A DNA stretch of 64,000 nt from Patescibacteria group bacterium (lineage in GTDB: Bacteria > Patescibacteriota > Patescibacteriia > JBDRGY01), in NCBI GenBank assembly GCA_043817315.1, contig JBDRGY010000002.1:1046-65045 (forward strand). Direction: 5' to 3'. A model generated the notes under the pieces. The model was not told the origin of the DNA, made no database searches, and saw only the letters and a list, made by a program, of their open reading frames with translations. The translations under genes and the position numbers were made by a program. Below, piece by piece: positions 3,825 to 64,000 of this stretch; the first letter of the stretch is position 1, and each line of letters begins with the position of its first letter.

Positions 3825-6800
3825 CTAAAACAAATTTCCCATATTACTCATCCAAGAGAAAGTATCAGACAGATTATCTATTACGATTTGTAAAAATGAT
3901 TCTCTCTTTCTGGAGGTTAGGACAGAGTAGCTATCAGATAGGGTTTCATTGTCTGCTTTATCAGTTGCCACAACGCGGAAATGGTAGGTTCTGGCTGGTT
4001 CCAGGTCTTTGATTACCATGATGTGGTCAATCACTAGTTCTGGATTTACATCGGTTGATCCGGTGTAAGTGGAAGAAGAAAGTCCTTCTCCGTATTCCAA
4101 TTGGGAAGAAGTTGGTTCATTGGTCATCCAGGAGACAATAATCTGGACTGAAGCGGTATCACCAGACCCCACAGTATTAGCCTCATATCTAACATCAGAA
4201 ATAATAGGCGGCGTAGTATCTTCTAAAGTGGTAAAGGATTCTTCGGGGGAAACTGCTTCGTAACCGAATTGATCCCTGCCCCTGACTGTAAACTGGTAGG
4301 TGGTGGCATCTTCCAGTCCAAAGACCAGGACACTGTGATCAGTTACCAGGGCGGTATTGCCTTGAGTTTTGGAAGGTGTGTCTTCATTACCGTATTCCAC
4401 CTCTGAAGTAGTGGGTACGTTGGTGGTCCATTTGACTTCGGTCTGGCCTTCAGCCTTGTTTTCTGATGACACACTTAAAACTCTGGGGAAAGTAAGGGTG
4501 GTAAAAGCATAATCCCCTGATTCCGGTGCATTGTCGGTAGCATCTAAACCAGTAGGCCGAAAATGATAAGTGGTTCCGTCACTTAAGCCTGACAATTTCA
4601 AGGTGTGAGATAGGGTTGAAGAACCGGTAGTGTCGTAAACTACGGAGCCATAATCTGTAGTGGTGCCATAATCAATCAGTGAAGTTGTTTCTTTATTGGT
4701 TTTCCAGGAGATAGTGGCTTCATATAGTTTAATATCACTAACCACAACTTCAGAAACCCGGGGCGCTTCCAGGGTGGTTAAGCTACTGATCGAGGACAGG
4801 GCAATGTTTCCGTCAATATCCCGAGAACGAATACGGTAATAATATTTGGTCTCAGCATTTAGACCCTCCAAAACTACAGTGTGGTCGTCACTCTCTTCAA
4901 TGGTTCCCTGCTCTTCGCCCAAATCTTCAGTCAAGCCATATTCAGCGTGAGAATCCGCCTCTCGGTCTGTTTCCCAAGTAATAGTGGCTGTAAAGGAATC
5001 AGGAGTGACTGTGGGGCCAGCTGAAATCGTAGGCGGCGTCCGGTATCTGCCCTCTGGAATCTCGGAAACTACAGTGGAGGCAGCAGATTGAGCTCCGGCA
5101 TTGTCTTTGGCCGTTACTTTATAGTAATAAGTGGTTTCATTAGATAAACTGGTATCGATGTAGGCAATCGATTGAGTTTCGCTGATATCTTCAAAGGTCT
5201 TATTGTCAGTCGAGCGTTTGATTATATAAGCTACCTCTTCACCTTCACCAGAACTTATAGTAGTCGGTGGGTCCCAAGTTAGGGTCAGCATATACTTTTC
5301 AGTGTATCTGTCAGACGAATCAATGATTAACATATTGGTGGGAGCACCCGGCGCCGCCGTATTAGCCTCGAACTCTATGCTGGCATGATTGTCGTAGTTG
5401 ATGTTACCGGCATCATCGATAGCTACTATGTAAAAAGTGTTAGTACCTTGTTGGGTGGCATAAGGTCCCGGGCCTAAAGTGGTCTGGGCAGTGTAGGAAG
5501 AGTTGGTTACACTTGGCTCCTGATTAATTGAATAGTAGTAGCCCTCTATGGTTACCCCTTCATCAACCGGTTCCCCCCAGGTGAATTTGAAAGAGTTGGT
5601 GGTGTTACTGGTAGGGGCAACTGCCAGGCTAGTTGGAGCTGATGGGGCATCCGCTGTTTCAAAGGTGTAATCACCAGAATAGCCGGTATTGTCGTCCTCA
5701 TCAGTAAACTTTACTCTGTAATGATATGTGGTATCCGGTTCCAAACCGATCAGGTTAACACTGTGAGAGGATAGATGATCATCCTGGCCGGCTTCGCTAC
5801 CATAGGCTGTGGTTTCCCCATATTCCACGAATGAAGAACATTCTCTGTCTGTTAACCATTCAATAGTGGCTGATTGGATCCTGGTTTCTGCCCCTGGGTT
5901 ACCGACCAGGCTGGGAGCTTCATAATATCTGCCTCTAGCTTGTTCACAGACTTCGCTGGAAGCTGCTGAGGCTGCCTCGGCGTTGTCGGTGGCTTTAATC
6001 TGGTAGCAATACCAGGCATTCTGGGTTAAACCGGTATCCAGATAACCGGTTCCTGTTACTTGGGATATTTCGGTGTAAGTATCCCCGCCATCATCTGATC
6101 TTTCTACTTTGTAGTGATCAATTCCTCCGCCTACTTGATCCGGTTCTTCCCAGGTAACGGTTAGTCTAAAGGTGCCTTGTTCTCTGTTAGAAGAATCAGT
6201 GACGATAATTCCGGTAGGAATACCGGGGGCTGAGGTTGAGGCTGTAAATTCTATGGAAGAATAGGAACTCCAGTTCTTATTGCCGGCAGTATCTACTGCC
6301 ACCACGTAGAAAACATTAGCCCCTTGCTGGGTGGCAAAAGCATCTGGGCCAATGGTGGTTTGGGTGGTGTAAGTAACATTGTTAGCGTTAGGAATAGCGT
6401 TAATAGCGTAGTAATAACCAGCTATAGTAGTATCATGGCTGGCTGGTTCCAGCCAGGAGAAAGTAAAGGAATTAGTGGTATTAGAGGCTGGATCTACTTG
6501 TAGATTCTGAGGTTCTGATGGAGCGTTGGCTGAATAATAATAGTTTACTGAAGTGTAGTAATCAAGCAGATTTCCAGCCACATCTTTGGACCTGACGTAA
6601 AAAACATTAGTGCCTTCCTGGTAAGAGGTGATTCCAGAGACAGTGGTTTCCGCAATACAGGTATCGGTGGCAGCCGGTGCCCCTGTTTTGTAGCAGTATT
6701 CACCAATGCCGGAATGGGCATCGGAGCCGGCATTCCAAGTAAAAGAATAACTATCTTCACTGGAAAAACCAGCTGGGTTGGGTAGGATCCCAGAGGGGTT

Positions 6801-8891
6801 GCCGGGGTCAGTGGCGTCGTATTTGAAAGTGAAGGCGGTCCAGGTTGCTACGGCTTTATTTCCGGCAACATCCTGAGTTTTAATCCTTAAATAGTAGGTG
6901 CCTGATGACGAAGGAGCAGCAGTATAATTGGCATCAGTAGAATAACTACCAGCAGTGGGATCACAACTAACTGCCCCAAAACACACCCAATAACCGTGGA
7001 CTCCAGATGGATTACCCTCTGGTCCGGCTGCATCAGCTGCTCCTGCCCATGTAAAATACGGTCCGGTGTGGTTGTACCAAGTGGCCGTAGTAATGGCATC
7101 GCCTCCGTTTTCGGAATAACCATTGATGGTGTCTGGATTGGTTGGCGGGGTAACATCAGAAGGGGTAAAAGCAATGGAATTATCTTCAAAGATTGGAGTG
7201 TTTCCTCCAGAGGGCGTTAAGGTCAACTGATACTGGACATACTGCTCTGTGTCAGTCACGCAGCTGTTGGCGCTCATATCTGAACCGCTTCCTATTGCCG
7301 TGCAAGTTGAAAAATCTGGAGCACCGAACATCACCGCGCTGTCAGAAGTGCGCACTTTGACTGCCACGGTACCTGAGCCCGAAGAATTATAAGCAAGATT
7401 GCCCCAGTCAGCTGAGAATTCAGTGTTAAAAATATTAGAGGTGAGTGTCCCTGTTGATTCATAATCTGATAGACTAAAATCATCGACGTAAACTGTTTTA
7501 CTAGCCTTCACCTGCACTCCATAAGTACGACTAGAAGCAGCCCCGGTTACAGTACCGGTTAGTTTGTACCAACCACCAGCATCGGCAGTGAAGGCTGTGG
7601 TCACAGTTGAGCCGTTGGCATAAAGCTCCACGTCAGCATCAGTTACTTCCGAGCCGTCAGTATAGGCGTAGGCTACTAAAGTATAAGAATTTGTATCTCC
7701 TACATTAACATTCTGTAAAAGTTCCACGGTATTTGTTCCAGAAACTACCTTGGCTGATCCTGCTCCATTTCTTTTGGTGTCGGTATCCAAAGTAAGGGTA
7801 CTGCCCAAGTTAAACTTGTTAGCCAAGAAGTTTTCCACCCCGTGGCGGTCTGCGGCTGAGATCACTTCGTCATAAATCATAAATTCAGCTATACGTCCGT
7901 TAAGATTCCAGGTACCATCGGCCCATTTGCCGATGGCTAGCCGCGGACTGGAAAAAGTGGCCTGGGAACCAATGGCGCTGACGGACTGCGATACACCATT
8001 AAACCAAAGAAAATGGCGGTTTCCAGTATTAGAAACTTGCTGGGAAAAAATCTGGAACCCCGAATCTATATTGGGACCATTGGCCACACCACCGTTGTAA
8101 TAGTTATAGTAGTCATCAGCGGTTCCTCCAGGAGCGTAGCGGGAGATAGACGATCCATTACTTGGACTGGCTGGATTGTAAATGAAGTATAGGTAATCGT
8201 AATTACTAGACGGCTGATTGGTGTAGTCAAACGAGGCCACTGAGATAACAGTGATATCAGTGATCGAAGCAATAGAAGTTAAGTCCACATAAAGCACTTC
8301 TCCGTTGCCAGCTGTATCAACGTCTGGCGAAAATTGGAGAACCGCTCGGCTATTCAACTCATCTGTTTCATAAGTCGGTCGGCGGCTGGCTGACGTTTGG
8401 GAAGCGTCGTTATTGCTGCTCGATTGGTCTCCCCAAACCTGGACGGTCTGTCCGTCTGTGGCCAGGGTTGAACCATTGTCATTATAGGCTTCAGCGTCTG
8501 CTCGCCCATAAAACTCTAAACCGCTGATAGTGGTCGGATCTATGCCCAGCCAGCTGTCTAGATCACTAGAATCATCAACGCCTGTATCAGAAAATTCCTC
8601 AGTGGCTGATACTGATACCTGCCCGGCCGTGGTAGTAGCATCAATATTTGATCCTGAAGCGTATTCGTCTACGGTCGAAGAGCCTACGCCACCACTCCAA
8701 TCAGTCTGCGTCCAGGGTGAATCGGCTGCTCGGGTAAACGGCCATTGGGTAACCAGTACAACTATAACCAATACTAAAAATACCGAGATTATCATTTGGA
8801 TTCGGTACTTAACCCGGTAAATTCTAAGCCTAGCTAAAGCCTCTTTTAGCTGCTTCCTTAAATCAGAGGTTTTACTCTGTCTGGATTTCAT
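3825..8891 (-). CDS. Giant surface protein, paralog 2 (1688 aa). It has a basic N-terminal tail, a single TM anchor, a LamG-like lectin domain, many FN3-like / purple-acid-phosphatase-N-like beta-sandwich modules, and a conserved C-terminal motif.
   Basis: Single 5-kb ORF with TM segment RIQMIISVFLVLVIVVLVTQW. LamG-like signature ...LNGRIAEFMIYDEVISAADRHGVENFLANKF. Internally duplicated ~100-aa modules (NTTNSFTFSWLEP...GYYYAINA...TQQGANVFYVVAVDTAGN and NTTNSFKFTWGEP...GYYYSINQ...TQQGTNTFYIVAIDDAGN). Repeated T.EW.T......VEYG.T..YG....H.V.L.GL...T.Y.FR units. Confidence 0.9.
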   Translation of the reverse strand: MKSRQSKTSDLRKQLKEALARLRIYRVKYRIQMIISVFLVLVIVVLVTQWPFTRAADSPWTQTDWSGGVGSSTVDEYASGSNIDATTTAGQVSVSATEEFSDTGVDDSSDLDSWLGIDPTTISGLEFYGRADAEAYNDNGSTLATDGQTVQVWGDQSSSNNDASQTSASRRPTYETDELNSRAVLQFSPDVDTAGNGEVLYVDLTSIASITDITVISVASFDYTNQPSSNYDYLYFIYNPASPSNGSSISRYAPGGTADDYYNYYNGGVANGPNIDSGFQIFSQQVSNTGNRHFLWFNGVSQSVSAIGSQATFSSPRLAIGKWADGTWNLNGRIAEFMIYDEVISAADRHGVENFLANKFNLGSTLTLDTDTKRNGAGSAKVVSGTNTVELLQNVNVGDTNSYTLVAYAYTDGSEVTDADVELYANGSTVTTAFTADAGGWYKLTGTVTGAASSRTYGVQVKASKTVYVDDFSLSDYESTGTLTSNIFNTEFSADWGNLAYNSSGSGTVAVKVRTSDSAVMFGAPDFSTCTAIGSGSDMSANSCVTDTEQYVQYQLTLTPSGGNTPIFEDNSIAFTPSDVTPPTNPDTINGYSENGGDAITTATWYNHTGPYFTWAGAADAAGPEGNPSGVHGYWVCFGAVSCDPTAGSYSTDANYTAAPSSSGTYYLRIKTQDVAGNKAVATWTAFTFKYDATDPGNPSGILPNPAGFSSEDSYSFTWNAGSDAHSGIGEYCYKTGAPAATDTCIAETTVSGITSYQEGTNVFYVRSKDVAGNLLDYYTSVNYYYSANAPSEPQNLQVDPASNTTNSFTFSWLEPASHDTTIAGYYYAINAIPNANNVTYTTQTTIGPDAFATQQGANVFYVVAVDTAGNKNWSSYSSIEFTASTSAPGIPTGIIVTDSSNREQGTFRLTVTWEEPDQVGGGIDHYKVERSDDGGDTYTEISQVTGTGYLDTGLTQNAWYCYQIKATDNAEAASAASSEVCEQARGRYYEAPSLVGNPGAETRIQSATIEWLTDRECSSFVEYGETTAYGSEAGQDDHLSSHSVNLIGLEPDTTYHYRVKFTDEDDNTGYSGDYTFETADAPSAPTSLAVAPTSNTTNSFKFTWGEPVDEGVTIEGYYYSINQEPSVTNSSYTAQTTLGPGPYATQQGTNTFYIVAIDDAGNINYDNHASIEFEANTAAPGAPTNMLIIDSSDRYTEKYMLTLTWDPPTTISSGEGEEVAYIIKRSTDNKTFEDISETQSIAYIDTSLSNETTYYYKVTAKDNAGAQSAASTVVSEIPEGRYRTPPTISAGPTVTPDSFTATITWETDREADSHAEYGLTEDLGEEQGTIEESDDHTVVLEGLNAETKYYYRIRSRDIDGNIALSSISSLTTLEAPRVSEVVVSDIKLYEATISWKTNKETTSLIDYGTTTDYGSVVYDTTGSSTLSHTLKLSGLSDGTTYHFRPTGLDATDNAPESGDYAFTTLTFPRVLSVSSENKAEGQTEVKWTTNVPTTSEVEYGNEDTPSKTQGNTALVTDHSVLVFGLEDATTYQFTVRGRDQFGYEAVSPEESFTTLEDTTPPIISDVRYEANTVGSGDTASVQIIVSWMTNEPTSSQLEYGEGLSSSTYTGSTDVNPELVIDHIMVIKDLEPARTYHFRVVATDKADNETLSDSYSVLTSRKRESFLQIVIDNLSDTFSWMSNMGNLF

Positions 8892-30501: not shown

Positions 30502-30539
30502 GGGCCGTTAGCTCAGTTGGCTAGAGCGTCACTTTCGCA
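30502..30539 (+). other. 5' fragment of a tRNA-Ala(CGC)-like gene (positions 1-37: acceptor 5' strand, D arm, anticodon stem 5' strand and CGC loop) with no matching T arm downstream
   Basis: GGGCCGT TA GCTC AGTTGGCTA GAGC G TCACT TTCGCA. It is followed at once by the GC-rich bracket motif CCCGCCTATCGGAGTGCGG. Confidence 0.6.
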
Positions 30540-30556
30540 CCCGCCTATCGGAGTGC

Positions 30557-30628
30557 GGGCCAGTAGCTCAGTGGTAGAGCACTGCATTCGCATTGCAGGG
30601 GTCAGGGGTTCGACTCCCCTCTGGTCCA
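30557..30628 (+). tRNA. tRNA-Ala(CGC), no encoded CCA
   Basis: GGGCCAG/CTGGTCC acceptor with G3-U70, anticodon stem CTGCA/TGCAG with loop TTCGCAT, T arm AGGGG TTCGACT CCCCT. Confidence 0.9.
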
Positions 30629-30802
30629 TTTCCGCACGGCGGGCAGGTGGCGAAAGTCGCCCCGCTTTTTGGCGGAGCACGGCACCAAATCAAAAAAATG
30701 CCTAAAATCAGCCAAATTTTGGCTTGATTGTTTTTACAAAATGTGTTAGAATTAAGTTGTCCTTAATTTAGAAAAAATCCAAATTGAAAGGGGGTGAACT
30801 AA

Positions 30803-31560: not shown

Positions 31561-31690
31561 GGGCCGGTCCCTAGGTCCCGCACTGCGGGACCGGGATCCC
31601 GATCACCAAAAGTGACTTAGGGATAGTTCAGTTTCCGCCAAAGGCGGACCAGCCTCTGGCTGGGGCTATCATCTCTTTGCGATAAAAAGT
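31561..31690 (+). other. Structured GC-rich segment that contains a split copy of the first 17 nt of the downstream tRNA-Ala(GGC)
   Basis: GGGCCGG plus a 56-nt stem-closed insert (TCCCTA...TAGGGA, with inner hairpins GGTCCCGC ACT GCGGGACC and TCAC CAAAA GTGA) plus TAGTTCAGTT. Further hairpins follow: CCGCC AAA GGCGG and CCAGCC TCT GGCTGG. Confidence 0.4.
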
Positions 31691-31707: not shown

Positions 31708-31891
31708 GGGCCGGTAGTTCAGTTAGCTAGAATGCCTCCATGGCATGCCTGCCCGCCAGGACCCATGGGCCGTTGGCTCAGTTGGTAGAGCGTCTCCATG
31801 GCATGGAGAAGGTCACCGGTTCGAATCCGGTCCGGTCCATAGGCTCTGGCAGGCGGGGAGGAGGTCAGGGGTTCGAGTCCCCTCCGGTCTA
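31708..31891 (+). tRNA. Interrupted outer tRNA-Ala(GGC). 5' part 31708-31746, 3' part about 31857-31891, with a ~110-nt intervening sequence at the 3' side of the anticodon loop.
   Basis: The two parts have complementary acceptor strands (GGGCCGG/CCGGTCT, with G1-U72 and G3-U70) and anticodon-stem strands (CCTCC/GGAGG), plus a canonical T arm AGGGG TTCGAGT CCCCT. Joined in silico they give a 74-nt cloverleaf. The D loop AGTTAGCTA lacks the usual GG. Confidence 0.5.
31767..31839 (+). tRNA. tRNA-Ala(GGC), complete, located inside the interruption of the outer tRNA-Ala(GGC)
   Basis: GGGCCGT TG GCTC AGTTGGTA GAGC G TCTCC ATGGCAT GGAGA AGGTC ACCGG TTCGAAT CCGGT CCGGTCC A. G3-U70 is present. There is one 7-66 mismatch. 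Confidence 0.85.
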
Positions 31892-54486: not shown

Positions 54487-54744
54487 ATGAAATATTACGT
54501 CTATATTTTAAAATGTGACGAGGAAAATTTATATACGGGATCGACTTGTGATTTGAAAAATCGGATTGAAAAGCATAAAAAAGGAGAAGGTGCTATATTT
54601 ACCAGAAACAGAAAATCGATTAAACTTGTATATAAAGAACTTTATAAAATAAGGGAGTTGGCTGAAAAAAGAGAAAAGCAGATAAAAGGGTGGTGCAGAA
54701 AAAAGAAGATAAATTTAATCAAATTTGGCCATCCTCTAGGGTAA
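54487..54744 (+). CDS. Small GIY-YIG nuclease-family protein (85 aa)
   Basis: MKYYVYILKCDEENLYTGSTCDLKNRIEKHKKG (GIY-YIG motifs YVYIL / LYTGST, R, E). The longer track ORF overlaps tRNA-Cys and is rejected. Confidence 0.85.
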   Translation: MKYYVYILKCDEENLYTGSTCDLKNRIEKHKKGEGAIFTRNRKSIKLVYKELYKIRELAEKREKQIKGWCRKKKINLIKFGHPLG

Positions 54745-55829: not shown

Positions 55830-55901
55830 AGCGGGTGAGCGGAATCGAACCGCCGTCTTCAGGTTGGAAACCTGACATAATAGCCACTATACTACACCCG
55901 C
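55830..55901 (-). tRNA. tRNA-Gly(TCC), no encoded CCA
   Basis: Minus strand: GCGGGTG TA GTAT AGTGGCT ATTAT G TCAGG TTTCCAA CCTGA AGAC GGCGG TTCGATT CCGCT CACCCGC T. Confidence 0.9.
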
Positions 55902-55955
55902 CCGCCCAATTCCTGGAACCTACATCTTTCTAGATAAGTTACAAGAATTGGGCGG
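55902..55955 (-). repeat. Perfect 12-bp inverted repeat (CCCGCCCAATTC / GAATTGGGCGGG, 30-nt loop) between the GIY-YIG stop and tRNA-Gly(TCC); its last base is tRNA position +1
   Basis: Read directly on the minus strand: CGCGCCCGCCCAATTC ttgtaacttatctagaaagatgtaggttccag GAATTGGGCGGG CGGGTGTAG. Confidence 0.7.
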
Positions 55956-55962
55956 GCGCGCC

Positions 55963-56220
55963 TTAACGAGACGCTAGATAATTTTTTAAGTTTTTCTTAA
56001 TAAATCTTCTCCCCCAGCCACTTTTATAGTATCTTTCTCTCTGGAGGGCATCTTGCTTGCTCAGGAAAGCTTCGCAATAAATTAACTTCAGTGGTAAGTG
56101 GGGCTGGGTTGAATAAGTTGACCCTTTATTGTGTTCTTTGACTCTCTTCTTTAGATTCTTGGTGAATCCTATATATAACCTGCCATTTTTCTCACTTTGT
56201 AGAATGTACACGTAATACAT
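55963..56220 (-). CDS. Small GIY-YIG nuclease-family protein (85 aa)
   Basis: MYYVYILQSEKNGRLYIGFTKNLKKRVKEHNKG...E. Confidence 0.85.
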   Translation of the reverse strand: MYYVYILQSEKNGRLYIGFTKNLKKRVKEHNKGSTYSTQPHLPLKLIYCEAFLSKQDALQRERYYKSGWGRRFIKKNLKNYLASR

Positions 56221-60030: not shown

Positions 60031-60284
60031 TGGTGCCGAGGGGCAGAATCGAACTGCCGACGCAAGGATTTTCAGTCCTTCGCCCCGCCCGCCGAACAAC
60101 GGCGAACTTGGAAGTAATCTACCTTTGGTGCCTGGGGCCAGAATCGGACTGGCGACGCAAGGATTTTCAGTCCTTCGCTCTACCACTGAGCTACCCAGGC
60201 TTCAAAGACAGACTACAAATTTCTTTTTCAATCAACTATATTCGCTCGGCGTTGCGGACAGGTCTACCACTGAGCTACCTCGGC
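60031..60284 (-). tRNA. Interrupted outer tRNA-Phe(GAA). 5' part 60284-60263 (positions 1-23), 179-nt insert 60262-60084, 3' part 60083-60031 (positions 24-76 including CCA).
   Basis: The 5' part is GCCGAGG TA GCTC AGTGGTA GA. The 3' part is GC G AAGGA CTGAAAA TCCTT GCGTC GGCAG TTCGATT CTGCC CCTCGGC A CCA. The acceptor pairing GCCGAGG/CCTCGGC is perfect and all loops are canonical. The insert ends form a 9-bp helix (CCTGTCCGC / GCGGGCGGG, with 2 G-U pairs). Confidence 0.55.
60126..60200 (-). tRNA. tRNA-Phe(GAA), complete, nested inside the outer tRNA-Phe insert; its T loop is non-canonical
   Basis: GCCTGGG TA GCTC AGTGGTA GAGC G AAGGA CTGAAAA TCCTT GCGTC GCCAG TCCGATT CTGGC CCCAGGC A CCA. 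The T loop reads TCCGATT, so the near-invariant U55 is C. Confidence 0.75.
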
Positions 60285-60356: not shown

Positions 60357-61979
60357 CTATTTTGGGGAATATTTATAGATTCTAACGTAATCACCCTTAA
60401 GCAAATCTACCCGGCAAGTTCTTAAAACCGAAAAGTCGTTACTGTATAAAAGCTGTTCGGGAGTGTATTCCGGGTTAGGTTCTACGGCGTAGATTAATTC
60501 GTTTTGGGAGGTTAGTTGCTGGTACTGTTCCGCCGCCCAGACAAAGTTGGGTTCGGGATCGGGGAAACCAGCCTCCTGAAGAATGCGACCGTGTACCCCT
60601 CCGGAAATGATGAAGTGGGTCGCTCCTTGCTTTTCATATTCTTCTCGGTCTCGCACAGTTAAATTGGGAACCTTTTCGGTAATATATTTATCAGCAGGCA
60701 AATCCGGGGTATACGGTTCTACTACAAATTCAGTACCTTCCGGCATTTCCCGTAATATATATTGGCGTGCTTTCTCAATAGTGTAGTCATCCGCCCAACC
60801 GTACATGGTCCGAGCTAAGCGCCAGGCAGGGGCAGCAAATATGATTATACAGATTAAAACCGCTAACCAGCGGCGGCGACTACAATACTTAAAAATATAA
60901 TCAAGACCGGCTGCTCCCATGATAAATAAGATAGTAACCGCCGGGATCAACCATCTGGCCCAGTGCAGATTAAGAACGGACAGCAATAAAATGTAGCTGA
61001 TGACGCTGATTAACAGAAAGAAAAACTTAAATTCACGCTGGCTATATTTCTTTTTGATTATCTTGTAGCAAATAAAAAATATAATTGCTAGGGTTATCAA
61101 AAATAGAAAGGTGCCCAGTTGCCAGTGTAGAGTATCTATGGTATACCATTTTAAATTGCCCCAAAAACCAAGATCATCATGACCTCCGTGCTCCGTCCGG
61201 TTTTCAATTACCAGATGATAAAGCACACGGTGGAAATTCAAAAATAAAAACGGCCCGGTGACAAAGCTAGCCACAATAGCTGCAAAACCACTGGCCAGCC
61301 AGTTCTTGATAAACAGTTTCTTCTGACGCCACAACCAAACAAATATCATGATTAGTGGCACTACAAAAAATAGAGAAGGATATTTAGTAGCCGCGGCCAC
61401 TCCCAGGCTGGCTCCGACCCCCAGATACCAACCAATTTTGGCCGGCTGATCGATCAAGCGGAAGACAAAAAACAACATCAGCATCAAGAAAAAAGTTTGG
61501 ATAATGTCTGGTCGGATTATATGTGAGTGGTCCACCAGAAAAAATGAGGTGGCCACCAGAATTGCAGCTATAATTCCTGTTCTTTTATTCCAGTGCTTAC
61601 CGACAAAGTAGGCCAACAAAACAGTAGCCGCTCCCAAGAGAGCAGGTAACATCCGGCCGGCTGTCTGAAAAATGGTGGTAAATAACTGGTAGTTTTGGGA
61701 AGCGGCTAAGGCAGTCTCGTGAGCTTGGTTAACAAAAAAGTTAATAATTCTAAAAATAAAACCCATGCCATAGATCAGGGACTGGGCAGGAGCACCAAAC
61801 CAGCCGGGGTTTAAAGCACCGTTGGCAATATTGAGGGCCGGTTCTACGAAAAATTCTTCATCCACCAAATAAAGCCGGGGTAATCCAAAACTGATAAAGA
61901 CCAAACGCAAAATCAGGCCAATTAAAAAAATCGCCATTAGTATGATGAATATCTTGCTGGGCTTGCGAATATGTTTCAT
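60357..61979 (-). CDS. GT39/ArnT-like polytopic glycosyltransferase (second copy)
   Basis: The track ORF starts at a GTG (62003) inside a tRNA fragment. I prefer the ATG at 61979 (MKHIRKPSKIFIILM...). About 12 TM helices plus a C-terminal soluble domain. Confidence 0.65.
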   Translation of the reverse strand: MKHIRKPSKIFIILMAIFLIGLILRLVFISFGLPRLYLVDEEFFVEPALNIANGALNPGWFGAPAQSLIYGMGFIFRIINFFVNQAHETALAASQNYQLFTTIFQTAGRMLPALLGAATVLLAYFVGKHWNKRTGIIAAILVATSFFLVDHSHIIRPDIIQTFFLMLMLFFVFRLIDQPAKIGWYLGVGASLGVAAATKYPSLFFVVPLIMIFVWLWRQKKLFIKNWLASGFAAIVASFVTGPFLFLNFHRVLYHLVIENRTEHGGHDDLGFWGNLKWYTIDTLHWQLGTFLFLITLAIIFFICYKIIKKKYSQREFKFFFLLISVISYILLLSVLNLHWARWLIPAVTILFIMGAAGLDYIFKYCSRRRWLAVLICIIIFAAPAWRLARTMYGWADDYTIEKARQYILREMPEGTEFVVEPYTPDLPADKYITEKVPNLTVRDREEYEKQGATHFIISGGVHGRILQEAGFPDPEPNFVWAAEQYQQLTSQNELIYAVEPNPEYTPEQLLYSNDFSVLRTCRVDLLKGDYVRIYKYSPK

Positions 61980-61993
61980 TCCTTTGGCGATTA

Positions 61994-62034
61994 TGGTGGG
62001 CACGGATGGATTCGAACCATCGACCTCGTCATTA
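61994..62034 (-). other. 3' fragment of tRNA-Ile(GAT), positions 36-76 including CCA
   Basis: Minus strand: T AA TGACG AGGTC GATGG TTCGAAT CCATC CGTGCCC A CCA, directly after the bracket motif ...CCGTACGGCGGGCAGG. Confidence 0.65.
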
Positions 62035-62074
62035 CCTGCCCGCCGTACGGATACACGTATTAATCATCTACTGC

Positions 62075-62151
62075 TGGTGGGCACGGATGGAGTTGAACCA
62101 TCGACCTCGTCATTATCAGTGACGCGCTCTAACCAACTGAGCTACGTGCCC
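62075..62151 (-). tRNA. tRNA-Ile(GAT), complete, CCA encoded
   Basis: GGGCACG TA GCTC AGTTGGTTA GAGC G CGTCA CTGATAA TGACG AGGTC GATGG TTCAACT CCATC CGTGCCC A CCA. The leader CTACTGCTGG pairs with the trailer CCAGCAGTAG, extending the acceptor helix by 10 bp. Confidence 0.9.
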
Positions 62152-62232
62152 CCCAGCAGTAGACAAAAATAAACTTCCTATTGGTTGGGTTAATGTAAAA
62201 GTTCTTTGAGGCACCGTACTCCGGCAGGCGGG

Positions 62233-62379
62233 TCAGTGACCCCGCAACTAGGTTCGTTACACTCGCCAGTGCGGGGCAGGCGCGCTTTCCTATTTGGTGC
62301 TTACAGTAAGTTGGTGCGCTCCCCGTCCGACTGTCTGGCGTCAGTCAAGCTGACGGGTAGCTAACTGAGCTACGTGCCC
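62233..62379 (-). other. tRNA-Ile-derived 5' fragments (positions 1-21 at 62379-62358; positions about 24-35 at 62245-62233) separated by a 112-nt GC-rich structured segment
   Basis: GGGCACG TA GCTC AGTTAGCTA, then nested helices (GTCAG/CTGAC; GCCAG..CGGGG.GCGC...GCGC..CCCCG..CTGGC), then GCGGGGTCACTGA (compare the inner tRNA GCGCGTCACTGA). Confidence 0.45.
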
Positions 62380-62448
62380 AAACTAAAAAGGATTTTCAAT
62401 ATCCAAGTATATACCAATTTATCAGAAAAACTTAGTTTTGACAAGTGT

Positions 62449-63096
62449 TTATAGTCCGGACTTTTCTTCCGGTCTTTCCTGTAAACTGGCGTCAAAAATA
62501 AAGCGATTGAGAATTATGTGCCACTTATCCTTTACTTGCGGCCACTCTGTTTTTATGCCGGAAAAGCGCTTAACTACCACCACCAGTAACAAGCCGATAA
62601 AGACCCAGCCCTGCCAATAAGGAAGCCTAAAGATAACCACAGCTACTGGTAGGCAGGAGAAAAACAAAATCATGGGAATGGGTGTATGTTTGGTTATTAT
62701 CCAAAAAATGATAAAAATTATGAAGCAGTAGAGAAAGGCTTTGGGCGCTAACACGGCAGCCAGGCCAAGGCCAGCTCCACCTCCTCGTCCTTCTCCCCGT
62801 TTTAAGAAAATTGACCAGTTGTGCCCGACCACCCCCAGTACACCACCAATTGCTCCTATCATCGGCCAGCCCAGATAATTGCCGATGAGCACCGGCAAGA
62901 CTCCTTTGGAAATATCCAGAGCCCCGGAAATGATCGCCGGCCCTACTCCGGCTGTCCGGGCTACATTGGACCCGCCCATTTTTCGCCAACCATGTTCGGT
63001 GACATCGATACCTTTGAATATTTTGCCGGCGAAAAAACCAAAAGACATAGCTCCCCAAAGGTAACAAGTGATCAAAAATATTATCTGCCAAATCAT
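62449..63096 (-). CDS. plsY: Glycerol-3-phosphate acyltransferase PlsY
   Basis: 215 aa. ...GSGN.GATN..R-like GGSNVARTAG, D..KG..PV, GH..S.FL.F.GG.G. Confidence 0.85.
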   Translation of the reverse strand: MIWQIIFLITCYLWGAMSFGFFAGKIFKGIDVTEHGWRKMGGSNVARTAGVGPAIISGALDISKGVLPVLIGNYLGWPMIGAIGGVLGVVGHNWSIFLKRGEGRGGGAGLGLAAVLAPKAFLYCFIIFIIFWIITKHTPIPMILFFSCLPVAVVIFRLPYWQGWVFIGLLLVVVVKRFSGIKTEWPQVKDKWHIILNRFIFDASLQERPEEKSGL

Positions 63097-63284
63097 GCAT
63101 TAACTATATCACAAGATAAGAAACTATCCAGGCTCCTGGCCCAATATGGACACCCCTAGCAGGGGTCATGCCACTTTCGCCGATTTCTCCAACCGGTAAG
63201 TCTTTCTTGAGAGAGAAACAGTTGGCTCTAAGGTCAATCAGATTTTAGTCTCTGTGTAGCCATTGGCCATGGGGAAATTGTATC

Positions 63285-63313
63285 AAAAAAAGCCGATTTA
63301 AATAAATCGACTA
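63285..63313 (-). terminator. Hairpin terminator downstream of the 16S rRNA 3' end
   Basis: Minus strand: GTCGATTT ATTT AAATCGGC followed by T7. Confidence 0.55.
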
Positions 63314-63451
63314 ATTTTCTGCCTTTAGCAGCTAAATGGTAACAGAAAGGAAACGTTTTCCCTCCGCCTAAGGCGGGGGGCCGACCTATCTCTAGGTAAA
63401 GAGATTGGATAAAGTGCCGAATTCGGGCACTCTATCAATTATTCTCCCTAG

Positions 63452-64000
63452 AAAGGAGGTGATCCATCCACAGCTTCCGCTACGGATGCCTTGTTACGAC
63501 TTCGTCCCTATTATCGATCCTACCTTCGGCCCAGTAAACTGGGACTTCGGGTATTACCGACTCTCTTGACGTGACGGGCGGTGTGTACAAAACCCGAGAA
63601 CGTATTCAACGCGCCGTGGCTGATGCGCGTTTACTAGTGATTCCAGCTTCATGAGGTCGAGTTTCAGACCTCAATCCGAACTGAGACTAGGTTTGATGGG
63701 ATTAGCTCCACGTTACCGTTTCGCAAGACCCATTGTTACTAGCCATTGTAGCACGTGTGTCGCCCAGGGCGTCAGAGGACCATGCTGATCTGACGTCATC
63801 CCTTCCTTCCTCCCCCTTAAAGGGGGCAGTCTGACATGAACAATTTAACATATCACAGGGGTTGCGCTCGTTTCCGGACTTAACCGTACATCTCACGACA
63901 CGAGCTGACGACGACCATGCAGCACCTGTCACTAGGCTCCTTTGCAGGCACATTCTCCTTTCGGTGAATTTCCTAGGATGTCAAGCCCTGGTAAGGTTTC
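63452..64000 (-). rRNA. 16S rRNA, 3' terminal ~550 nt; the gene continues beyond the right window edge
   Basis: The minus strand ends ...GGATCACCTCCTTTC (anti-SD). Universal blocks are present: AAGTCGTAACAAGGCATCCGTAGC, TTGTACACACCGCCCGTCA, CAACGAGCGCAACCCC. Confidence 0.95.

Follow-up and report, generated by a model that had tools for sequence, protein, structure and literature searches.

Why should an intact tRNA gene lie between the pieces of a second gene for the same tRNA? The question is raised by a tRNA-Ile(GAT) locus in a 64,000-nt stretch of contig JBDRGY010000002.1 from a Patescibacteria group bacterium (hereafter the window; coordinates given without a locus label are positions in it). 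On its minus strand, positions 62379-61994 hold a complete tRNA-Ile nested between pieces of a second tRNA-Ile, an arrangement recognized by a first-pass annotation of the sequence and borne out by our analysis. On balance, we think it probable that a non-coding mobile cassette, which carries a whole tRNA as cargo between inverted-repeat arms, replaces the tRNA gene that it splits and leaves the outer gene behind as a relic. The cassette family is spread through Patescibacteria, and its cargo-bearing members always sit in a tRNA gene of the cargo's own type. Our literature search returned no description of nested or arm-interrupted bacterial tRNA genes, and the nests appear to be undescribed.

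Anatomy of the tRNA-Ile(GAT) nest

All pieces of the locus listed in the first-pass annotation were found where it had placed them. It had counted three outer pieces and a double interruption; in fact the outer tRNA-Ile(GAT) is split into four pieces, with at least three interruptions. Read on the minus strand, exon 1 (positions 1-21, GGGCACGTAGCTCAGTTAGCTA; 62358-62379) is identical to the inner gene at 20 of 22 nucleotides and has a D loop without GG. Insertion 1 (62322-62357), at 21/22, begins immediately 3' of this fragment and is a 36-nt GC-rich hairpin, CCCGTC...GACGGG (-15.6 kcal/mol, z -2.65), that looks like a hairpin of collapsed arms. It is followed directly by GAGCGC (62316-62321), a micro-exon that supplies positions 22-27, i.e. 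the 3' strand of the D stem, position 26 and position 27, and gives exact colinearity of the outer with the inner gene. The outer D stem, thought at first to be impossible to complete for want of positions 22-23, can therefore be completed. Insertion 2 (75 nt, 62241-62315), at 27/28, combines an AT-rich 5' part that bears a weak similarity to the cassette spacer (the score is reached by 13 of 1000 shuffles), with a 3' hairpin CCTGCCCCGC...GCGGGG that resembles the arm motif (CGCGCCTGCC is matched with one mismatch); another parse of this insertion, as an AGCGC direct repeat plus a 41-nt hairpin, leads to identical joined exons. What had been taken as a single GC-rich 112-nt segment with nested helices resolves into the 36-nt hairpin, the 6-nt micro-exon and the 75-nt insertion. 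Similarly, the middle piece GCGGGGTCACTGA is present at 62245-62233, but the true exon 3 is GTCACTGA (positions 28-35; 62233-62240), identical to the inner gene at all eight positions and abutting the arm, and the 'extra G' belongs to insertion 2.

The third insertion, the cassette proper (198 bp, 62035-62232), lies between anticodon positions 35 and 36 and is bounded by CCCGCCTGCC...GGCGGGCAGG. Its 5' arm X (CCCGCCTGCC, 62223-62232) is followed by a GGA bulge (62220-62222), the helix strand GTACGG (62214-62219) and an AT-rich spacer that ends in the leader CTACTGCTGG(G) (62152-62213). Then come the cargo, a complete tRNA-Ile(GAT) with encoded CCA (62075-62151), a stretch of trailer GCAGTAG, spacer and helix strand CCGTAC (62045-62074), and the 3' arm Y (GGCGGGCAGG, 62035-62044), with which the cassette ends at 62035. 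The arms pair in register over 10 positions (eight Watson-Crick pairs, one C.A mismatch and one U.G wobble); past them lie the 3-nt bulge on the 5' strand and the 6-bp helix GTACGG/CCGTAC. The leader forms a helix with the trailer and CCA of the inner tRNA (CTACTGCTGG / CCAGCAGTAG). Outer exon 4 (positions 36-76 including CCA; 61994-62034) scores 27.1 bits as a partial tRNA.

The inner gene is obviously the functional copy, as had been proposed: it is called by ARAGORN, scores 75.8 bits with Rfam RF00005 (cut-off 29), and has 21 Watson-Crick stem pairs and the expected base at all 13 universal positions. Joined together (...GCTA|GAGCGC|GTCACTGA|TAATGACG), the outer exons make 22+6+8+41 = 77 nt that align to the inner gene without gaps at 73/77 identity, and the 77-mer is called by ARAGORN as a tRNA-Ile(GAT) with 21 Watson-Crick stem pairs. 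The four differences lie in the D loop (two) and the T loop (two): the outer gene has AGTTAGCTA and TTCGAAT where the inner one has AGTTGGTTA and TTCAACT. The outer D loop indeed lacks the universal GG (G18 G19), a peculiarity that it shares with the outer tRNA-Ala(GGC) of the window described below. The suggestion that this locus represents a later stage of decay finds no support here, as 21 of 21 stem pairs are Watson-Crick, the T loop is canonical and the missing D-loop GG is the sole defect.

The similarity of the outer fragments is formally significant, since local alignment of the inner tRNA with the upstream flank scores 18 (shuffles: mean 8.1, sd 1.2, maximum 13) and with the downstream flank 37 (mean 7.0, maximum 12), above all shuffles in both cases. 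A promoter-like site, TTGTCA-17-TAAATT with TG (62416-62444, minus strand), lies 37 nt 5' of the outer tRNA. It is the only consensus match in 61900-62500, where shuffles give a mean of 0.8 (sd 0.8), i.e. there is no excess over chance; the same scan finds none inside the cassette.

Further nests in the window

The first-pass annotation had likened the Ile locus to loci for tRNA-Phe and tRNA-Ala in the same window, and a common arm motif, CCYGCCYGCC...GGCRGGCRGG, confirms the likeness. The 'bracket arms' that it had pointed out are present; what it had missed is that they are the conserved termini of a phylum-wide element family. The window holds three further nests (Phe, Ala-CGC and Ala-GGC), in each of which the inner and outer tRNA have the same anticodon and the same orientation.

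In the tRNA-Phe(GAA) nest (60031-60284, minus strand), the cassette (60262-60084) with its inner tRNA (60200-60126) interrupts the D stem at 23/24, between outer exons at 60284-60263 and 60083-60031. The acceptor stems of the outer and inner genes differ by two compensated pairs, and the cassette bears a variant of the arms. The 'second tRNA-Phe' called by ARAGORN at 60031-60103 (29 bits with Rfam) consists of the outer 3' exon and an arm. The tRNA-Ala(CGC) nest (30502-30687, plus strand) has an outer 5' exon at 30502-30539 and a cassette at 30540-30647 with arms CCCGCCTATC...GGCGGGCAGG. The 3' part of its outer gene has lost the T arm and part of the acceptor strand and is not recognized as a tRNA, and the outer gene is clearly a pseudogene. 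An arm subfamily, CGGAGTRCGG / CCGYACGG, is common to this nest, the Ile locus and the outside loci L124/L138. The tRNA-Ala(GGC) nest (31708-31891, plus strand; outer exons 31708-31747 and 31858-31891) has a cassette at 31748-31857 whose arms are flipped, i.e. present as the reverse complement. Upstream of it, at approximately 31561-31680 on the plus strand, we observed a tRNA-Ala-like 5' relic (GGGCCGGT...TAGTTCAGTT) interrupted by GC-rich hairpins.

Exact copies of GGCGGGCAGG occur in the window at three nests only (Ile, Ala-CGC and Ala-GGC). Allowing one mismatch raises the count to 12, where 2.7 would be expected, and for the paired-arm pattern zero chance matches are expected in the window. 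Exact deletion of the cassette restores an ARAGORN-recognized tRNA with the cargo's anticodon in the Ile, Phe and Ala-GGC nests.

An element family spread through Patescibacteria

A scan of 185,579 species genomes with the pattern CCCGCCTNNCRGAG-N70-100-GGCGGGCAGG returned 107 loci, most of them chance matches in GC-rich genomes, and 12 with a complete tRNA between the arms. The hosts of these 12 include three Saccharibacteria and one each of Dojkabacteria, Falkowbacteria, Kuenenbacteria, Gottesmanbacteria, Roizmanbacteria and Curtissbacteria, the others being one 'Patescibacteria group', one bacterium without a finer name and one metagenome-assembled genome (MAG) labelled Bacteroidetes. A metagenome scan with the arms added 26 arm-bracketed tRNAs, for a total of 38 outside the window, with cargo of the types Cys, Trp, Ile(TAT), Gln, Thr, Pro, Gly, Val, Arg, Glu and Ala. 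Each of the 38 has on both sides pieces of a tRNA that matches its cargo in type and orientation. Deletion from the first to the last base of the element, with zero offset, restores a same-anticodon ARAGORN tRNA in 26 of the 38, which means that no base was duplicated or lost and that there is no target-site duplication; in the other 12 the outer pieces are of the same type, with extra hairpin insertions or decay. Among 32 cargo-less elements in low-GC hosts, none lies within a tRNA gene, as expected if insertion kills the target. As the motif was the query, the arm conservation among the copies found is partly circular. The idea that arms and leader are more conserved than the tRNA was rejected: 24 arm nucleotides are fixed by the pattern, and the excess at the free positions is not significant.

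The commonest insertion site is 35/36, and 34/35, 36/37, 37/38, 39/40, 21/22, 23/24, the D loop and 56/57 are used as well. One family (arms, leader and tRNA-Gln) occurs at two different sites in tRNA-Gln genes, 56/57 and the D loop. The flanks vary by copy (CTGA, CGCA, TCTC, TTCG, AATC and others), and no conserved target motif was found in them. Relative to the tRNA the arms can point either way, and the element boundaries fall at the tips of its inverted repeat, which fits a DNA element better than an RNA signal. Elements can also be stacked: in a Gottesmanbacteria MAG (L051, ~6690-6905) an intact tRNA-Thr(CGT) is innermost in a triple nest, within a tRNA-Thr split at 35/36 that itself lies within a third tRNA-Thr split in the D arm, with alternating arm orientation. 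A survey independent of the arms, in which acceptor strands were paired with T arms over at most 900 nt in 536 kb of low-GC loci, gave three further nests, which have other arms, and every interrupted tRNA that it found came with an intact copy of its type. Viral contigs held no arm pairs at spacings of 70-100 or 140-170 nt.

Could the nests have arisen with no element at all, by local tRNA duplication and decay or through the assembly of strain variants into chimeras? Duplication of tRNA genes does occur, and MAG assemblies can be chimeric. This explanation is nevertheless hardly credible, as the same 10-nt arms with exact boundaries recur at the four window loci and at 38 others, in many assemblies and lineages, and the paired-arm pattern has no expected chance match in the window. 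The Ile locus itself is confirmed by an independent ENA contig (L001; 1,652 nt), which contains the whole of it at 99.94% identity.

The scans also brought up related arrangements. Eight metagenome contigs (L112 with two copies, L131, L133, L135, L145, L155, L175 and L176) share a highly conserved element of ~190 nt in which the same arm pair surrounds a conserved non-tRNA interior (AGAGAACTCGAGAAATTTTTTGCCCTGGGCACGGAGATCCCCGCTTGCGCAGGG...), with conserved flanks and no Rfam match; two smaller families have other interiors (L014/L167 and L137/L171). A different conserved insert, of ~60 nt and with ATTGCAGCAYRAGGCGTGAAYGAATARTTCYGAAAGCCGARTGCTAAAAT enclosed by a CCCTCC...GGAGGG helix, occurs in the downstream flanks of the L141 and L169 nests, where it interrupts the T arms of two outer tRNAs that are unrelated to each other (Glu and Val). 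Another nest variant is seen in L016 (3376-3700, plus strand), where a tRNA-Pro(GGG), whose leader and trailer pair (AAAATCATTAT / ATAATGATTTT), has a 3' tRNA relic after it and outward-facing GGCGGGCAGG / CCTGCCCGCC motifs on its flanks.

Outer genes: relics or spliced tRNAs

Exact restoration of the outer tRNA, in 26 of the 38 elements and in the Ile, Phe and Ala-GGC nests of the window, is also what splicing would produce. The inserts could be true introns of a new, protein-dependent kind, with an endonuclease cutting at the base of the arm helix and a ligase rejoining the exons; one transcript would then yield two tRNAs, and the small hairpins would belong to this class as introns without cargo. 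The multiple interruption of some outer genes, reminiscent of archaeal multi-intron tRNAs (PMC4090602), fits this idea, as do several of the observations gathered below. We nevertheless consider it unlikely. Cargo-less arm inserts in sole tRNA genes should then be viable and common, and none of the 32 was found in such a place; a redundant same-anticodon copy is present in every interrupted gene; several outer genes could not yield any tRNA; the arms flip relative to transcription, which puts the 3-nt bulge on the other strand and changes its sequence; and there is neither a bulge-helix-bulge nor a group I core.

That every interrupted gene carries its own same-anticodon replacement is, in our opinion, the strongest argument that the outer genes are relics. 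Their decay elsewhere is clear (Ala-CGC, L024, L088/L149, L111 and L132): the outer gene of L024 has no D arm, and those of L111 and L132 have no anticodon arm. In the L088/L149 pair the flanks differ by ~10% and the 115-nt cassette by nothing; of 76 outer-exon positions 5 are different, and only 17 and 19 stem pairs remain. Over 28 nests, outer genes have 574 stem pairs against 593 for inner genes, with 35 versus 17 G.U pairs, and violations of universal bases are commoner in the outers.

Could the outer halves and arms, once a cassette had arrived by the replacement route, have been kept to help the inner tRNA, either as a scaffold of folded leader and trailer or as a processing stalk of the RNase III type, such as is found around rRNAs? 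The minimum-energy fold of the 386-nt Ile transcript is a nested cloverleaf (-152 kcal/mol, z -4.5), and the leader-trailer helices lengthen the inner acceptor stem and tolerate G.U pairs on the sense strand (in the Phe nest 13 bp with three G.U). In the helices beyond the arms there are 36 G.U against 23 A.C; this excess is weak and the underlying alignment noisy, and as a strand test to discriminate selection on RNA from selection on DNA it was abandoned for the same reasons. Relatives have plain tRNA-Gln genes that work without any scaffold (see below), and at many loci the outer gene is lost or decayed. Retention of this kind therefore seems quite improbable.

Several observations weigh against replacement of the outer gene, and some of them favor splicing. 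The insertions fall mostly in cloverleaf loops, chiefly at 35/36, as expected of introns and as reported for group I introns in Patescibacteria tRNAs (PMC13011429). The outer Ile gene is intact in all stems despite three insertions (21/21 Watson-Crick, 73/77 identity, changes in loops only). Of the two Phe genes the outer is the more canonical: the inner T loop reads TCCGATT, with C at position 55, against a canonical outer T loop. The outer exons of L154 and L172 show 17 mismatches and 3 gaps against 55 identities and both keep 21 pairs, and the L132/L156 outers likewise are diverged with full pairing; full pairing in diverged outers implies that the insertions at this site were independent or that selection has continued. 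The sample is biased to young copies by the exact arms required in the search. Finally, no transposase, target duplication, target motif or autonomous element with these arms was found, and the only candidate trans-acting enzymes seen are small GIY-YIG nucleases encoded next to tRNA genes, whose link to the cassettes is circumstantial.

Presence and absence at an orthologous tRNA-Gln locus

No close relative of the window organism was present in the protein collection (the next-best PlsY is 33% identical). The states of a single locus were compared through DnaX, whose gene lies 90 nt from the tRNA-Gln nest of L044, in eight loci with relatives at 54-74% DnaX identity. The locus is polymorphic for presence and absence of the nest: a plain tRNA-Gln gene in three (L182, L184 and L186), an intact tRNA plus decayed fragments of a 3' relic in two (L180 and L177), a 5' tRNA fragment with two mini hairpins, a GIY-YIG gene and an intact tRNA-Gln in two (L178 and L185), and the full nest in L044. 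The occurrence of plain gene, relics and nest at one locus suggests repeated invasion of a plain gene, with relics that decay and vanish, and the plain tRNA-Gln is likely to be the ancestral state.

The arrangement in L178 (3136-3700) and L185 (2880-3300) recurs in L024 (65-493, minus strand) and represents a second architecture: a 5' tRNA fragment (Val-CAC or Gln), two or three mini hairpins CCCGCC...GGCGGG, a GIY-YIG gene and an intact tRNA of the same type, with no 3' relic. The mini hairpins look like collapsed arms. They also sit at 21/22 (TA|GAGCGC) in the L024 relic, the site of insertion 1 in the window Ile gene, which supports the micro-exon reading given above; arm cassettes occupy the same site in L088 and L149.

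Candidate enzymes and neighboring genes

Two GIY-YIG proteins are encoded in the window (54487-54744, plus strand, and 55963-56220, minus strand; Pfam E 5.6e-15 and 1e-16), and their genes adjoin tRNA genes, Cys/Gly(GCC) and Gly(TCC), respectively. Open reading frames (ORFs) for GIY-YIG proteins also occur beside nests or relics in L084, L011, L024, L178 and L185; the proteins have 85-120 aa and match the catalytic domain. At ~55890-55975 (minus strand), 3' of the second window gene, there is a 14-bp helix of the CGCCCGCC type, in which the stretch just past the GIY-YIG stop codon pairs with the 5' acceptor strand of tRNA-Gly(TCC). Neither a GIY-YIG nor any other ORF is present in the Ile cassette, whose 198 bp are filled by arms, spacer and a 77-nt tRNA.

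A Pfam scan of the ORFs between 18.4 and 63.1 kb, which left out two giant ORFs at 3.8-17.8 kb and several of ~100 aa, found no transposase, integrase, ligase or splicing endonuclease and housekeeping genes instead. Within 4 kb of 32 nests there is no recurrent neighbor gene; synteny blocks are seen there, as well as a YraN-like (UPF0102-type) gene recognized by eye (4 loci) and GIY-YIG genes (3 loci). Next to the Ile nest, the GTG start at 62003 of a 548-aa ORF for the adjacent glycosyltransferase falls within the tRNA 3' exon, as the first-pass annotation correctly stated; the first ATG, at 61979-61977 (MKHIRKPSK...), is the more likely start. Upstream on the minus strand (62449-64000), the 3' end of 16S rRNA (63452-64000) is followed by plsY and then the tRNA-Ile. 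With plsY separating it from the 16S rRNA, the tRNA-Ile of this host lies outside the 16S-23S spacer.

Proposed mechanism

We propose that a 198-bp non-coding cassette invaded a resident tRNA-Ile(GAT) gene exactly between positions 35 and 36, without target duplication, bringing as cargo a whole tRNA-Ile(GAT) in the orientation of the gene that it split. The cargo would be transcribed from the resident promoter 5' of the outer gene and freed by ordinary tRNA end-processing (RNase P at the 5' end and 3' trimming), and would take over from the split gene. The latter would remain as an unmatured relic and would have acquired in addition the two smaller hairpin insertions at 21/22 and 27/28. Repeated invasions would build up Russian-doll nests, whose relics then decay and disappear. 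The cassette is assumed to move as DNA with the help of a trans-acting enzyme and may spread by homing-like repair.

The match between cargo and target could be explained by selection alone, because a mismatched insertion would kill a single-copy tRNA. Selection fails to explain why no cargo-bearing copy was seen between genes though cargo-less ones were, which makes cargo-guided or homing-like targeting attractive. In its boldest form this would be a self-targeting 'tRNA gene drive', in which the cargo tRNA sequence itself directs insertion into the homologous host gene: it might, for example, pair with the target so that the displaced strand folds as a cloverleaf, the loops of which would be cut by a trans-acting structure-specific nuclease (e.g. 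of the GIY-YIG type). Such a scheme would account jointly for four features: cargo and target match perfectly in type, they are always co-oriented, loops are preferred, and the site can vary within one family (56/57 and D loop for the Gln cassette). We regard it as rather unlikely; if true, homology-guided mobility of this kind would have no described counterpart.

If replacement by cassettes is real, tiny non-coding elements that bring the replacement with them overwrite, time and again, the tRNA genes of an entire phylum with minimal genomes, a compact selfish-gene addiction acting on the translation apparatus. The nests would then be a fossil record of past tRNA replacements and a route for horizontal tRNA exchange. 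Were the inserts spliced, they would represent a third, protein-dependent class of introns in bacteria and would bear on the origin of disrupted tRNA genes. The outer and inner tRNAs differ at few bases and can be distinguished by tRNA sequencing. The nest layout also accounts for relic tRNAs in Patescibacteria MAGs and for false calls of tRNAs and ORFs there, such as the second tRNA-Phe and the GTG start of the glycosyltransferase mentioned above.

Known element types considered

Several known identities were considered for the Ile insert and rejected. A group I intron has no Rfam match in 61800-62600 at E values up to 10 and none window-wide at the gathering threshold, and the last base of the 5' exon, which should be U (U.G in P1), is A in this nest and G, C or A in others. 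In a bulge-helix-bulge motif a 4-bp helix separates two 3-nt bulges, one per strand, and each bulge contains a splice site. Here a 10-bp helix has both junctions at its blunt base, and the only bulge (RGA) is on the inner side; its sequence is, by inspection, unfit for a K-turn. The conserved 4-5 nt motif 5' of the left end that characterizes IS200/IS605-type hairpin elements (palindrome-associated transposable elements) is absent. An integrase-type integrative element would find no room for a protein gene in 198 bp, and both parts of the target flank the insert. Of the hallmarks of miniature inverted-repeat transposable elements (MITEs) and other transposons with terminal inverted repeats, the shared terminal repeats are present and the target-site duplication is not.

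Comparison with known systems

Group I introns of bacterial tRNA anticodon loops (PMC13011429) share with the cassettes the phylum and the unusual 35/36 site. They differ in that the cassettes lack a core, that copies of ~100 nt are filled by a tRNA, and that D-arm and T-loop sites are used too. The archaeal disrupted tRNA genes, with bulge-helix-bulge introns at non-canonical positions, several in one gene and related ones at different sites (PMC4090602, PMC4390854), resemble the nests in their related inserts, many positions, several inserts per gene and precise restoration. In contrast to them, the nests have a bacterial host, no bulge-helix-bulge and a complete same-anticodon tRNA inside, and several of the outer genes are dead.

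Like MITEs and the repetitive extragenic palindromes (REP/REPIN), the cassettes are short and non-coding, have GC-rich inverted termini in AT-rich genomes, and exist in many copies that include cargo-less intergenic versions; unlike them, they make no target duplication, carry a functional RNA, have a target tied to this cargo, and come with no identified RAYT or transposase. The free-standing GIY-YIG homing endonuclease SegB of phage T4 belongs to a tRNA cluster (PMC2330249), and here too small GIY-YIG genes adjoin tRNA genes. The position of a GIY-YIG gene between a 5' tRNA relic and an intact copy in L024, L178 and L185 would fit nuclease-driven replacement of a tRNA region. The Ile cassette departs from SegB-type homing in having no ORF, and the GIY-YIG proteins, of 85-120 aa only, are identified by their match to the catalytic domain.

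The closest system in working is that of the integrative elements that target tRNA genes (phages, integrative and conjugative elements and plasmids; the pNOB8-type model of archaeal tRNA disruption, PMC3293823), which often land at the anticodon or T loop. The cassettes differ from these in their size (100-200 bp), in being non-coding and without an integrase, in bringing a whole tRNA rather than its 3' part, in their inverted-repeat ends, and in leaving both target halves as a nest and not a single att repeat. What the two have in common is the essence of the proposed replacement: insertion occurs inside a tRNA gene, the tRNA sequence brought in keeps the function, and the displaced fragment is left behind.

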